Origin: Candidatus Saccharimonadia bacterium
Lineage (GTDB): Bacteria > Patescibacteriota > Saccharimonadia > Saccharimonadales > Saccharimonadaceae
Direction: 5' to 3'
Assembly: GCA_023257815.1 (NCBI GenBank)
Contig: JALRBJ010000002.1
Location: 18,787-82,786 of the forward strand
DNA length: 64,000 bases
The translations under genes and the position numbers were made by a program. Under the pieces are notes generated by a model. It ran no database searches, was not told the DNA's origin, and saw only the letters and a program-made list of their open reading frames with translations. Positions within the stretch are counted from its first letter, which is position 1. Each line of letters begins with the position of its first letter. Of this stretch, positions 5,300-47,401 are shown in pieces.

Positions 5300-5752
5300 T
5301 TAAGCAAACTCATCAATCTGCGCATTGCGGCGCTTATACCTTGGAGCGTTAGCAAACGGTGTACTAAGCCATGTTTCGATAATACCCTTCCAAGCAGAGT
5401 CATCATTTTCTAAGATTCGAGCCGGTAAACATAGTACGTTACTATCATTATCATTACGAGTCATCTTTGCTTCGTAGGCATCCCATATGACTGCTGCACG
5501 AATACCACGGAATCTATTGGCCGCAATTGCCATCCCTTGACCACCACCGCAAATCAAAATTGCCCGTGGGTCTTCGCCTATATCGCCAATAACCTTTGTT
5601 GCAGCTAATTGAGCAAAATCAGGAAAATCATCCGCAGGGTCAAGTTCTTGATCCCCCACGTCTTCTACGTCGTAATCATGCTTCGCAAGGTAAGCAAACA
5701 CTTTTTCTTTCATGTGAAAGCCTTGATGATCTGCTCCAAGATATATCTTCAT
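5300..5752 (-). CDS. rpiB: Ribose-5-phosphate isomerase B
   Basis: 150-aa ORF. GADHQGF and CGGGQGMAIAANRFRGIRAA are typical RpiB/LacAB motifs. Confidence 0.9.
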   Translation of the reverse strand: MKIYLGADHQGFHMKEKVFAYLAKHDYDVEDVGDQELDPADDFPDFAQLAATKVIGDIGEDPRAILICGGGQGMAIAANRFRGIRAAVIWDAYEAKMTRNDNDSNVLCLPARILENDDSAWKGIIETWLSTPFANAPRYKRRNAQIDEFA

Positions 5753-5794
5753 ATGTTTATAAGTATAAGCAGGATGTTGGTAGGTGTAAAGCTA

Positions 5795-5823
5795 TTGACA
5801 AATTATATATAAATTGATATAAT
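5795..5823 (+). promoter_or_regulatory. Sigma70-type promoter, TTGACA-N17-TATAAT
   Basis: Exact consensus -35 (5795-5800) and -10 (5818-5823) with a 17-nt spacer, about 65 nt upstream of the GC-rich ORF at 5889. Confidence 0.55.
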
Positions 5824-5888
5824 CACTTTCACGTTACACCTCTCCGTCATACGACCGAGGTGCGACTGCACCTCAGATAGGAACTACT

Positions 5889-6353
5889 ATGTTCATCACC
5901 AATGTGTTGCTCGCCTGCGTAGCGTCGCTGCTCGTCCTGATCTTCTGCGCGTTGATCATCAAGAAGCCGCCGACACCCACCCAGCCTGATCTGGTGCTGA
6001 TCAACCTCCTCAACGATGCCATCGAGGGCTTCGGCAAGGCCGCCCAGCACCACATCGACGTGTCGGCCGTCGTGAAGCTCGTGCAGCAGCTCGATGCCGA
6101 CCCGAACGCGCTGGAGCTGATCAAGTCCTACCCCGAAACAGTACGTGCCGCCGCCTGGCTGCACTACATCAACACACTGGGGGCCGACTTGCGGCGCGCG
6201 CAGCAGCGGTTGTCGGAGTCGCACGCGGGTAAGGGATACGTCGAACCCGTTCCGCAATACATCGATCGCGACCAAGCGCGTGTCGATGCCCTCCGCACCA
6301 AGCTCGACAAGGCCGTCGAGGCATCAGGGCAGACTGGTCTGCGTCCCGTCTGA
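5889..6353 (+). CDS. Hypothetical membrane-anchored protein encoded on a GC-rich insert
   Basis: 154-aa ORF with an N-terminal hydrophobic helix (FITNVLLACVASLLVLIFCALII) followed by a helical soluble part. Codons end almost exclusively in G/C, unlike all neighbours. It is antisense to the surrounding operon. No family recognised. Confidence 0.5.
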   Translation: MFITNVLLACVASLLVLIFCALIIKKPPTPTQPDLVLINLLNDAIEGFGKAAQHHIDVSAVVKLVQQLDADPNALELIKSYPETVRAAAWLHYINTLGADLRRAQQRLSESHAGKGYVEPVPQYIDRDQARVDALRTKLDKAVEASGQTGLRPV

Positions 6354-6360
6354 AGCGCAG

Positions 6361-6388
6361 CTGGCAGGGAGATTCGTCTCCCTGCCAG
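6361..6388 (+). terminator. Perfect 12-bp GC-rich hairpin with TTCG loop
   Basis: ctggcagggaga-ttcg-tctccctgccag lies 8 nt after the stop of the 5889-6353 ORF. There is no U-tract, so function as a terminator is inferred only. Confidence 0.5.
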
Positions 6389-6422
6389 CACAGCACAACT
6401 TTTCACCCGATCTAGGGTGTTT

Positions 6423-7442
6423 TTATTTTTCTAGATGCTTCGCAACATCAGCTACGAGCTCAACAACACGATTACTGTAGCCCCATTCGTTGTCGTACCA
6501 TACACAAACTTTTATAAGATTCCCTCCAACAACCTTGGTTAGAGGAAGGTCTACGATACCTGAGTGGCTATTACCAATCAAATCGCGGCTAACCAGTTCA
6601 TCTTCGGAGACAGCCAGAATACCTTGGTAAAATGGTTCGCTTGCCGCCTTCTTAAACGCGTTATTAACTTCCTCAACTGTCACGTCTTTAGATAGTAGCG
6701 CGGTCACATCACTTATTGACACAACGGATGTTGGAACACGAAACGCATGGCCGTCAAACTTTCCTTTGAGCCCAGGTAATGCCTTAGTTACTGCAATTGC
6801 CGCACCGGTTGGCAGCGGTACAATATTTTCTGCCGCATTACGACCCTCACGGAGTGTCTTACTCGGCGCATCCTGCAAAGCCTGACTTGCCGTATAGCTA
6901 TGAACAGTGGTCAGAAGCGACTTCTCTACACCAAACTCAGCATCAAGTATTGCCATAACCGTCGCAACAGAGTTAGTCGTACAGCTGGCATTGTTCACAA
7001 TAACACTTGAATTAGCGATTGCATCGTCATTGGCACCGATTACAAGAGTGTCAACTTCCTCACTTTTGCTCGGACCGCTTATTACTACTCGTTGTGCGCC
7101 TGCCTTTACGTGTAAGCCGGCGCCTTCTGCATCAGTAAAACGTCCAGTAGATTCAATGACTACATCAATCTCTAAATCTTTCCAAGGAAGCGCAGCTGGA
7201 TCTTTTTCGGCTAACACCTTTACCGTATGACCATTCACCGTTATACCACCATCATCGCTAGCACTTACATCATGGCCATACGTACCATAGTTACTGTCAT
7301 GCTTAAGAAGATACGCAAGGGTATGGTTATCGGTTAGATCGTTGATTGCCACAATTTCTAAATCGCTACGTTCAAATGCTATCTTAAATACATTTCGGCC
7401 AATGCGCCCAAAGCCGTTAATGGCAATTTTGGTTTTACTCAT
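6423..7442 (-). CDS. gap: Glyceraldehyde-3-phosphate dehydrogenase
   Basis: 339-aa ORF with INGFGRIGR NAD motif and the SCTTNS active-site motif. AAGGAG lies upstream of the start. Confidence 0.95.
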   Translation of the reverse strand: MSKTKIAINGFGRIGRNVFKIAFERSDLEIVAINDLTDNHTLAYLLKHDSNYGTYGHDVSASDDGGITVNGHTVKVLAEKDPAALPWKDLEIDVVIESTGRFTDAEGAGLHVKAGAQRVVISGPSKSEEVDTLVIGANDDAIANSSVIVNNASCTTNSVATVMAILDAEFGVEKSLLTTVHSYTASQALQDAPSKTLREGRNAAENIVPLPTGAAIAVTKALPGLKGKFDGHAFRVPTSVVSISDVTALLSKDVTVEEVNNAFKKAASEPFYQGILAVSEDELVSRDLIGNSHSGIVDLPLTKVVGGNLIKVCVWYDNEWGYSNRVVELVADVAKHLEK

Positions 7443-29312: not shown

Positions 29313-29341
29313 TTGACTTTTTTGTCTATAAGTGTTAATAT
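29313..29341 (+). promoter_or_regulatory. Sigma70-type promoter, TTGACT-N17-TGtTAATAT
   Basis: -35 at 29313-29318 and extended -10 at 29333-29341, about 60 nt upstream of the ATG at 29405. Confidence 0.45.
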
Positions 29342-29404
29342 CTATTTATAAATTGCATATCGAGATAAGATGTGCAATGGTGCATCTTAGAAAGTTAGGT
29401 CACG

Positions 29405-29659
29405 ATGATTGGGATCGTTATCTTTGGTCTTGTAACAGCCGGCGCAGGCATCTTACTGATGTTGTGCATCAGTACCGACCACGATGGAGTTTTACTTTTT
29501 ATCGCCGTAGTACTAGTTGCAGGCGGCATAGCTCTTATTCTTGGCGTAGCTGTCGAGAACAGCATCACGGTCAACAAGACGTGTATGCAGCAGCAAACAA
29601 GACCTCACCACCACAACAAATCCATGAACAGGGATACCTTCGACCACGAAGCCCTGTGA
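29405..29659 (+). CDS. Small two-TM membrane protein on a GC-shifted segment
   Basis: 84-aa ORF with two hydrophobic helices and a His-rich tail (TRPHHHNKS). Antisense to the surrounding rpsP...trmD genes. Confidence 0.4.
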   Translation: MIGIVIFGLVTAGAGILLMLCISTDHDGVLLFIAVVLVAGGIALILGVAVENSITVNKTCMQQQTRPHHHNKSMNRDTFDHEAL

Positions 29660-29957
29660 GGTGATGCTGAGCTACGACGAGGAAGCTCTATCTCGCCGGC
29701 GTGCAGGTCGTGGCTACGCCCGAGGTACTAGAGGCTATTTGCAAGAAATAGCCCGCCATAAGCCCTCTGAAGGAAGCTCGCTGTTGAGTTGCAATACGCA
29801 CTCCGGCTTGTAGCTCCTTCAGGGGGCTTTCTTCATTGCAAATAAAAAACGCCCTGATTTTCGGACGTTTTTTATCACATATAAGGCTCTCAAACCTGTA
29901 GGTTTGCTCGCATAGAGCTTCTTTTTGAGTTCTCGCAGTTGTTTGAACTAATGCTTA

Positions 29958-47070: not shown

Positions 47071-47099
47071 TTGACATTTATCACATTATATAGTATTAT
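47071..47099 (+). promoter_or_regulatory. Sigma70-type promoter, TTGACA-N17-TATTAT
   Basis: -35 at 47071-47076 and -10 at 47094-47099, about 50 nt upstream of the ATG at 47149. Confidence 0.55.
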
Positions 47100-47148
47100 T
47101 GGATTGATTCGATGTCTCAGTCATCGAACAGTTCCAGAGGAGATTCAC

Positions 47149-47325
47149 ATGAAGAAGCTCGCCCTCGCGACCGGTGGTCTGGTGGCCGCCAACGTCGTCG
47201 CGAACATCGGCATCAACAAGATCGCTACGACGGGAGGTATCGGCAGGCTGGTCTTCGTGGTCACCCCGTACCTCATCCCCGCCCCGATCAACTACTACCT
47301 CATGGTCAACGGCGACACGGCCTGA
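47149..47325 (+). CDS. 58-aa Gly-rich hydrophobic peptide on a GC-rich insert
   Basis: MKKLALATGGLVAANVVANIGINKIATTGGIGRLVFVVTPYLIPAPINYYLMVNGDTA. GAGGAG lies 6 nt upstream. By my count 53 of 58 codons end in G/C, which is foreign to this genome. Confidence 0.5.
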   Translation: MKKLALATGGLVAANVVANIGINKIATTGGIGRLVFVVTPYLIPAPINYYLMVNGDTA

Positions 47326-47339
47326 GCCGGCGGAACTCC

Positions 47340-47401
47340 GCCCCCGAAAACGGTACCCGAAGTGGTTCAGCCCTTCGTCGAGCCGTTTCGGGGGCCGTTT
47401 T
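47340..47401 (+). terminator. Long GC-rich hairpin plus T-run
   Basis: gcccccgaaaacgg ... ccgtttcgggggc (one bulge, ~29-nt loop) followed by CGTTTTC. Confidence 0.5.

Follow-up and report, generated by a model that had tools for sequence, protein, structure and literature searches.

Positions 5795 to 6429 of the 64-kb window analysed here (contig C22, 18787 to 82786, of a Saccharimonadaceae genome of 860 kb in 36 contigs with a GC content of 44.4%) hold a short GC-rich gene together with its own expression signals. Our analysis suggests, with a probability that we put at about 60%, that this unit is one copy of a modular expression cassette specific to the Saccharimonadaceae lineage, in which a conserved regulatory shell serves both as an expression signal and as a substrate for the exchange of the gene enclosed by it (the cargo). 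The predicted shell consists, on its 5' side, of a consensus sigma-70 promoter and a leader of about 60 nucleotides (nt) that carries a CU-rich box and a hairpin with one arm resembling a Shine-Dalgarno (SD) sequence and the other an anti-SD sequence, directly 5' of what would be the real ribosome-binding site (AGAAAGG). On the 3' side it would usually comprise a second GAGGTG box at or just past the stop codon, a GC hairpin conserved in structure, and an intrinsic terminator. Between the two lies an interchangeable, always GC-rich open reading frame (ORF), which in the present copy appears to encode a membrane-anchored helical protein of 154 amino acids (aa). The features of the window are as follows.

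5300-5752, minus strand: rpiB (ORF list)
5762-5790, minus strand: rpiB promoter-like site, TTTACA-N17-TATACT, back to back with the cassette promoter
5795-5823, plus strand: consensus sigma-70-type promoter, TTGACA-N17-TATAAT, with a TG extended -10 (sequence)
5824-5888, plus strand: 5' leader (alignment A2; covariance model R1, E = 3.4e-15)
5837-5845, plus strand: CU-rich anti-SD-like box CACCTCTCC, within the leader
5857-5874, plus strand: leader hairpin, GAGGTGC (5857-5863) and GCACCTC (5868-5874), loop GACT (alignment)
5878-5883, plus strand: putative SD region TAGGAA, within the leader
5889-6353, plus strand: cargo ORF of 154 aa ('family X'), between rpiB and gap and antisense to both
6360-6372 and 6377-6389, plus strand: 3' GC-rich hairpin, perfect 13-bp stem GCTGGCAGGGAGA/TCTCCCTGCCAGC, loop TTCG (sequence)
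6404-6429, plus strand: predicted intrinsic terminator, CACCC-gatcta-GGGTG (6404-6419) followed by the T-run TTTTTATTTT (6420-6429) (sequence)
6423-7442, minus strand: gap (ORF list)
29314-29659, plus strand: sibling cassette, antisense between a KH-domain gene and trmD

The neighbours of the cassette are fba, tkt, rpe, rpiB, gap and relA/spoT. A first-pass annotation, made by a model from the letters of the window, had described a GC-rich, self-contained single-gene cassette placed antisense between the minus-strand genes rpiB (start at 5752) and gap (end at 6423) and driven by an exact native-style promoter, and all of this is borne out. The composition, which it had judged by eye, does deviate from that of the genome: in 200-bp sliding windows the GC content is 0.62-0.645 across 5900-6399 and 0.37-0.48 in either flank, and the ORF itself has 62.6% GC, with 0.665, 0.387 and 0.826 at the first, second and third codon positions (GC1, GC2 and GC3). 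Genome-wide, GC3 is unimodal, with a mean of 0.397, a standard deviation of 0.072 and its bulk at 0.39 (907 greedy ORFs); the family-X gene lies about 6 standard deviations above this mean, ranks second of the 907, and belongs to a set of only 23 genes with a GC3 of at least 0.60. Five ORFs of at least 40 aa overlap it in other frames and are spurious, as the first-pass annotation had said of what it counted as six.

The description of the cassette as splitting an operon was overstated, because rpiB carries a promoter of its own that is kept at the empty site of a sister genome. The motif of this promoter (GTATAAGC...TGTAAA) occurs at the empty rpiB/gap junction of genome G350 and also upstream of rpiB in loci L001, L002, L006 and L011, and the predicted rpiB promoter is native to the junction and lies outside the insert. 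Assembly chimerism at the family-X gene is unlikely, because the gene recurs with the same flanks in independent assemblies (L001, L002, L003, L006 and L011) and the exact protein is found on three contigs, the longest of 445 kb.

The shell and its cargos

Our analysis shows that the predicted shell is common to at least 17 unrelated ORF families, mostly putative small membrane proteins. An exact pattern of the leader gave 12 matches in 10 of 301 genomes of the family, and the reversed control gave none; a metagenome scan yielded further true cassettes alongside chance matches. A covariance model (R1), built from an alignment (A2) of 25 leaders that precede unrelated ORFs, finds the leader in 29 of the 301 genomes, with one to three copies each, in 12 of 95 genera and in 8 of 12 genomes of the same genus, whereas about 240 genomes belonging to the other families of Saccharimonadales gave no hit. 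These genome samples, like those used below, were drawn evenly from larger groups, and the frequencies are estimates. When the promoter, the hairpin and an ORF were all required to be present, 26 unique cargos remained, which fall into 17 clusters by BLASTP (E < 1e-3), 11 of them with a transmembrane (TM)-like segment. Every one of the 26 is GC-richer than its flanks (median GC 0.597, median flank GC 0.496), and their GC3 ranges from 0.60 to 0.90 with a median of 0.80. Two cargos that were tested are ORFans, found only in Saccharibacteria.

The order of the shell is apparent when the flanks of family X from syntenic and non-syntenic sites are aligned. A near-consensus promoter is followed by about 30 nt of leader with the CU-rich box (aCCTCTC), the hairpin cGAGGTGCG-loop-CGCACCTC, AGAAAGG(GG), 6-9 nt and the start codon; beyond the gene come CTGAGGTGC at or just past the stop, a perfect GC hairpin of 11-16 bp whose 5' arm is rich in purines, 15-25 nt and an intrinsic terminator. 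The shell accompanies the family-X gene into non-syntenic contexts. TTGACA-N17-TATAAT at 5795-5823 is the only perfect match to this consensus in the window (0.00 expected), and 11 of 21 other cassettes have a near-consensus promoter, fitting at 11-12 of 12 positions, at a fixed distance 5' of their leader hairpin; most of the other extracts end short of the -35 box.

In the 25 aligned leaders 96.9% of the cells of the hairpin are paired; its arms are conserved in sequence, with a single compensatory double change, and enclose a loop of 3-9 nt. The genuine non-Watson-Crick pairs are all G.U when read on the sense strand (11 G.T), the four A.C or C.A pairs in the alignment stemming from two rows that are one base out of register, and this restriction to the sense strand points to a probable structure of the messenger RNA (mRNA). 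One arm, GAGGUG, is SD-like, and the other, CACCUC, is what we take to be a copy of the anti-SD core at the 3' end of 16S RNA. A search of Rfam 15 gave no match at or near a gathering score; its one hit, FinP, has 19.5 bits where 45 are required (E = 0.43). The leader is a candidate for a new, lineage-specific RNA motif. The first-pass annotation had noticed its hairpin, one base off, at 5858-5875.

The 3' hairpin, by comparison, varies in sequence. Its 5' arm in the window is the purine-rich one, and the stem has 13 bp at 6360-6389, not 12 bp at 6361-6388 as first described, although it is indeed perfect. All 11 family-X relatives carry a perfect hairpin of 11-16 bp at this position, each of different sequence. 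Across 12 hairpins there are compensatory changes at 11 of 11 pairs and 100% of the cells are paired, a percentage that is inflated by cropping each hairpin on its own loop, which does not affect the diversity of pair types; the covariation score was reached by none of 500 shuffles. Near-identical 3' hairpins also follow unrelated ORFs (L056 and L064). The intrinsic terminator, which the first-pass annotation had missed, consists of the hairpin at 6404-6419 and the T-run at 6420-6429; relatives have an equivalent terminator hairpin and T-run 3' of the GC hairpin. The T-run overlaps the final codons and the stop (6423-6425) of the minus-strand gap. At 6420-6437 it thereby supplies the C-terminus of the gap product, ...HLEK*, and in genomes of the same genus this C-terminus varies with the occupant of the slot (AKGIK*, GKNL*, AKSLAK*, SKSL*).

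The stop-proximal GAGGTG box is, as far as its distribution indicates, specific to the shell: TGAGGTG adjoins the stop in none of the 140 TGA-ending genes genome-wide, and 12 of 21 cassettes have it no more than 12 nt away from the stop. In L011 the stop box CTGAGATGC is fully complementary to an altered leader box, GCATCTCAG. Because several copies, including that of the window (CTGAAGCGC) and those of L064, L080 and L089, carry mismatches, we treat a 5'-3' pairing of leader box and stop box as a hypothesis.

Model R1 finds three copies in the genome of the window (G000). The sibling cassette has the promoter TTGACT-N17-TAATAT, a variant leader hairpin AGATGTGCA/GTGCATCTT followed by AGAAAG, an ORF for a predicted two-TM protein of 84 aa (29405-29659) and TGAGGTG at the stop; its leader is matched at C22:48137-48195, which is 29351-29409 of the window, with E = 6e-6. 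About 200 nt of GC-rich structured sequence trail this cassette on the 3' side (29314-29860 in all). A third copy lies 18 kb upstream of the window start (C22:248-506), with TTGACA-N17-TATAAT and GAGGTGCGaaggtGCACCTC, and encodes a TM peptide of 35 aa (MKRHMTDRQYAIYLLLLIIVVFSILVYSMVRGSGS) that could be a truncated cargo or a peptide of the type I toxin kind; its 3' hairpin GGGCGGGGAGA/TCTCCCCGCCC has a stem identical to that of L001. A further GC-rich gene, for a 58-aa peptide at 47071-47401 of the window, has the near-consensus promoter TTGACA-N17-TATTAT and a different leader. Its 3' element, CCCCCGAAAACGG...CCGTTTCGGGGGccgttttc, represents a second type of 3' module, which also accompanies leader-bearing cargos of L095, L097, L100 and L108 and a leaderless ORF in the rpiB/gap slot of G228, in each case on the 3' side. 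The 5' and 3' modules appear to combine independently.

Exchange at the rpiB/gap slot and the age of family X

Sixteen of the 31 leader loci lie in the slot between rpiB and gap, in genomes whose gap is down to 64% identical to that of the window. The content of this slot varies within the genus: it can be family X (in the genome of the window), other cargos, a tandem pair, a pilin-like gene or nothing. L001, L002, L006 and L011 hold family X at this junction, and relative to the window their gap is 76-79% identical and their 154-aa protein 49-70%; in L002 a second cassette, for a product of 90 aa, stands behind the family-X one. G307, of the same genus, has two tandem units, for a multi-TM protein of 123 aa and a protein of 128 aa. 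Other cargos occupy the slots of G479, G464, G449 and G398, the slot of G228 contains a GC-rich ORF without the leader, and in G350 the slot is empty, with 45 bp between gap and rpiB and only the rpiB promoter inside. In G377 (L029, 2443-3177) the occupant is a gene of ordinary GC content for a 244-aa protein with a type IV prepilin-like N-terminus (GFTIVELLIVVIVIALLAA), oriented as the operon; the slot therefore also accepts cargo that has no shell.

One of these genomes, G464, is a recombinant. Its cassette consists of the promoter and leader of the first G307 cassette fused to the ORF of the second, with the switch point inside the GCACCTC[A/G]GAAAG segment of the leader. Because this junction falls within the leader box, the repeated leader is a predicted site of deletion or insertion.

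Family X is represented by 35 close homologues and, when grouped at 50% identity, by 131 clusters drawn from 1.84 billion proteins. Wherever a name or a readable context is available, the homologues are of Candidatus Saccharimonadales, Saccharimonadaceae or Saccharibacteria type, with the single exception in naming of a metagenome-assembled genome labelled Magnetospirillaceae, on a contig of about 49% GC. Its distribution over whole genomes is patchy: one genome of 201 carries it in the order, 6 of 201 do in the family, and none of 4 does in the same genus. A tblastn search of 50,697 phage and 72,556 plasmid records gave no match. At each of the 17 distinct loci with readable context, the GC content of the gene is 0.55-0.66 and its GC3 0.62-0.89; the flanks, at 0.37-0.58, are always lower, and gene GC and flank GC show no visible relation. 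Fourfold-degenerate sites at conserved residues are 0.37-0.62 identical between copies, where about 0.36 would be expected at saturation. Because these sites are near saturation and still 70-90% G+C in every copy, the GC-richness of family X is old and maintained, independent of flank composition.

These results bear on the origin that had first been proposed for the gene. Saccharibacteria are epibionts of Actinomycetota, and the first-pass annotation had read the composition as a sign of transfer from such a host to the symbiont, recommending a comparison with actinobacterial proteins. No actinobacterial name occurs among the 35 close homologues and the 131 clusters. The homologues are of Saccharimonadales type and always GC-rich, so that they are found in close relatives with the same composition, an outcome that the first-pass annotation had itself named as refuting its reading, and the synonymous sites that separate them are near saturation. 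The GC-rich gene is very probably not a recent import from an actinobacterial host.

Competing explanations

In the reading that we prefer, the repeated shell and the conserved flanking core genes would together supply the homology for the gain, loss and exchange of ORFs. The two hairpins, one at each end, would combine with the GC-rich body to yield a strongly transcribed, nuclease-resistant, long-lived and translationally tuned mRNA, and the cargos would be strain-variable envelope or accessory proteins. The closest described analogue of such a shell is the promoter-early stem-loop (PeSL) cassettes of T4-type phages (Arbiol et al. 2010, PMC2839356; Comeau et al. 2014, PMC4122927). In these, ORFans of hyperplastic regions lie between strong promoters and stem-loops, and the repeated regulatory motifs recombine with one another, by which ORFs are shuffled, lost or inserted. 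The two resemble each other in the shared promoter, leader and 3' hairpin, the tandem units, the hot-spot slot and the recombinant internal to the leader, and the repeated motifs flanking unrelated small ORFs that characterize PeSL cassettes are present here around 17 cargo clusters, with 16 of 31 copies in one slot. They differ in that the present cassettes sit on the chromosome of an ultra-small cellular epibiont, flanked by genes of central carbon metabolism; that they have an SD/anti-SD hairpin in the 5' untranslated region (UTR) and, ahead of the terminator, a distinct 3' hairpin that covaries; and that their cargos are uniformly GC3-rich. In PeSL cassettes recombination between the motifs also yields mini-circles; for the present ones the observation is the single recombinant with its junction inside the leader box. 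For Saccharibacteria, a literature search found no description of the GC-rich cassettes or of the leader.

Several points weigh against this reading. There is one clear recombinant internal to the shell (G464), and exchange could proceed wholly through the flanking core genes, the shell being merely a shared regulatory element. The leader arms are conserved in sequence with near-zero covariation, so that the hairpin may equally well be a binding site for a protein, the ribosome or a recombinase as a purely structural element. With a folding energy of -233.5 kcal/mol, the 601-nt transcript is just modestly more stable than 20 shuffles (z = -1.9), which is suggestive only. Some of the 'unrelated' cargos may be homologues that have diverged past detection by BLASTP; several of the clusters are three-TM proteins of about 110 aa. 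The roles assigned to promoter, leader and terminator are predictions from the sequence. The GC3 of about 0.8 in the cargos could stem from selection for a stable or structured mRNA, from a recombination hot spot with biased gene conversion, or from residence in an unseen GC-rich vector. Translational selection was considered as a further cause and rejected, because none of the 23 GC3-rich genes is housekeeping-like by its product (judged without further annotation) and the bulk of GC3 is unimodal at 0.39.

Among the alternatives, the one that survives best, which we consider possible if unlikely, is that the leader is purely a cis-regulatory RNA of a regulon of small envelope proteins, possibly toxin-like, while the cassettes are immobile and the slot reflects ordinary turnover of islets. 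The spacing of the leader to the promoter and to the start codon is indeed fixed, its arms are sequence-conserved and resemble SD and anti-SD, and the TM-like segments in 11 of 17 cargo clusters include those of peptides of 35-53 aa. The G464/G307 recombinant, however, shows the leader taking part in rearrangement, and the 3' modules are also common to unrelated ORFs. The model for a toxin-like unit would be the mRNAs of type I toxins (hok/Sok, AapA/IsoA), in which the SD is sequestered and the 5' and 3' ends fold back on each other. Likenesses include small hydrophobic cargos (35-84 aa), CU-rich anti-SD leader boxes, an mRNA that is GC-rich and structured, and complementarity between a leader box and a box near the 3' end; in L011 the complementarity of CTGAGATGC and GCATCTCAG would allow hok- or AapA-like 5'-3' pairing. 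This complementarity is imperfect in several copies, including that of the window, and no antisense promoter was detected inside the unit, the sole minus-strand promoter being that of rpiB. Type I toxin loci combine a small hydrophobic peptide, of fewer than about 60 aa, with an overlapping gene for an antisense RNA. Sibling cargos of 35-53 aa are within this size; family X, with 154 aa and a conserved soluble domain, is not toxin-like, many cargos are of 90-170 aa and some are soluble.

It is unlikely that an unseen GC-rich reservoir (about 60-65% GC; a plasmid, a virus or another element) repeatedly and recently drops cargos into chromosomal shells, so that their composition would mirror this source and not selection in place. 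The decoupling of gene GC (0.55-0.66) from flank GC (0.37-0.58), the very patchy distribution, the different cargos in one slot and the like behaviour of two other GC-rich families of the genome would all fit such a source. GC-rich flanks are nevertheless found at none of the 17 loci with readable context, a scan of the viral contigs of IMG/VR for the leader pattern gave one chance match and no true cassette, the tblastn searches of the phage and plasmid collections were empty, and the names of the clusters give no donor. Moreover, the occupation of the same slot across gap identities of about 76-79%, with family-X identities of 49-70%, is compatible with vertical descent. The cassette also shares traits with phage morons, namely an autonomous promoter-gene-terminator unit of deviant composition between two conserved genes. 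It differs from these in lying outside a prophage (its neighbours are core genes, it has no PHROG match and IMG/VR holds no true cassette), in a shell that is homologous across many unrelated cargos, and in a deviant composition that is maintained over long times instead of being transient.

A more far-reaching proposal, to which we attach rather little weight, is that of an undescribed platform for gene capture and expression, located mainly at rpiB/gap, in which GAGGTGC boxes and the 3' hairpin would direct the exchange of single ORFs in an integron-like manner but without IntI or attC, and in which a GC3-rich gene pool would be kept apart by selection on mRNA stability or by an unseen GC-rich vector. 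We regard as improbable the stricter version, in which these boxes and the 3' hairpin are site-specific recombination sites in the manner of attI and attC, used by a recombinase that is either dedicated or co-opted. Interchangeable single-ORF units in tandem on a fixed platform, GAGGTGC directly repeated on either side of the cargo, a 3' hairpin that is conserved in structure, variable in sequence and often bulged as attC is, and a recombinant junction inside the leader box would all suit it. Integron cassettes, however, are promoterless and depend on a platform promoter beside an intI gene, whereas here each unit has its own promoter and terminator, and the 3' element is GAGGTGC with a perfect GC hairpin, without RYYYAAC/GTTRRRY or attC core sites in the cassette. 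No IntI is adjacent, the single tyrosine recombinase of the genome lying on contig C15 and not on C22; a leader loop of 3-9 nt is ill-suited to a recombinase core site, and the G.U pairs on the sense strand only give an RNA-like signature that points to an RNA role.

A recent transfer from a GC-rich actinobacterial host to a position behind a native promoter, which the GC3 > GC1 > GC2 pattern typical of high-GC coding DNA, the epibiont lifestyle on Actinomycetota and the patchy distribution (0 of 4 same-genus genomes with the protein) might suggest, is highly improbable in view of the 131 clusters without an actinobacterial homologue, the empty phage and plasmid searches, the lower-GC flanks at 17 of 17 loci, the GC3 kept despite near-saturated synonymous sites, the UTR shell that follows the gene into non-syntenic contexts, and the two other cargos that are ORFans of Saccharibacteria only.

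The family-X protein and the wider GC-rich gene class

Members of family X are all about 150 aa long, with one N-terminal TM helix, a basic stretch and a helical domain of about 110 aa; they share the core SYPETVRAAAWLHYINxLG, and H54, Y81-P82-E83, R86, H92, N95 and G98 are invariant. The TM helix, already proposed in the first-pass annotation, appears as helix 2-24 in an AlphaFold2 model with a predicted local distance difference test (pLDDT) score of 82.5, followed by helices 35-70, 83-113 and 122-145, so that the model consists of a TM helix and a three- to four-helix domain with the invariant His, Glu and His. Because the basic residues follow the TM helix, the C-terminal domain is probably cytoplasmic by the positive-inside rule. 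The protein has no sequence match in Pfam, PHROG or PDB and only far-sub-threshold matches in NCBIfam (best E 0.0074), and Foldseek returned nothing at E <= 1e-3, the best values being 0.18 in PDB and 0.06 among the viral models of BFVD, with generic helical bundles. Matches of the model to CnrX/NccX at E of about 1.2 are a weak lead. The neighbours of the non-syntenic family-X loci are mutually unrelated and give no guilt-by-association. Capture of host DNA in a wrong frame, considered as a source of ORFans, is ruled out for family X because it has the canonical codon-position pattern (GC3 > GC1 > GC2) and clear conservation at the protein level. The core motif recurs, tandemly repeated, within a large protein: eight separate stretches of P0089 (1562 aa, NCBI/ENA) match the family-X profile at positions 73-103 (the YPETVRAAAWLHYIN core).

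GC-rich genes of this kind reach beyond the shell. Two other families of the genome, C11:62940-63452 and C3:8109-9818, are found patchily in 4 and 5 of 201 genomes of the family and lie 7-20 GC points above their flanks in every genome. Taken together, the compositional data argue for a persistent class of GC-rich accessory genes, which would make up about 2.5% of genes. At least 4 of the 16 near-consensus promoters of the genome, the window's own included, precede GC-rich genes; the sites of TTGACA-N17-TATAAT type before other GC-rich ORFs are the following.

C35:31001-31029: near-consensus promoter before a GC-rich ORF
C11:55276-55304: near-consensus promoter before a GC-rich ORF
C4:5461-5489: near-consensus promoter before a GC-rich ORF

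Other GC-rich genes of this genome are found at C11:86274-87926, C35:26.9-31.9 kb, C5:6330-7367 and C36:14850-15221. Two short contigs, C26 (689 bp, 62.8% GC) and C29 (564 bp, 65.6% GC), hold fragments of ordinary genes, including a translational-GTPase-like N-terminus (NIAIIAHVDHGKTTLVD), and look like contamination of the bin from a GC-rich organism.

Deviant GC content in the genomes of symbionts is routinely read as recent transfer from a host. Here a gene class known from the symbiont lineage only has diverged for long and has yet stayed some 10-18 GC points richer than the surrounding DNA. This calls for caution with such assignments of horizontal gene transfer, and compositional calls in bacteria of the candidate phyla radiation need a control of this kind. 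The cassettes also place a hypervariable expression slot among central-carbon genes. In an ultra-reduced epibiont there is little room for accessory functions, and such capacity as there is likely bears on host interaction, exclusion or defence. For the few Saccharibacteria that are cultivable and naturally competent, the slot and the shell would offer a defined site and a natural expression shell for genetics.

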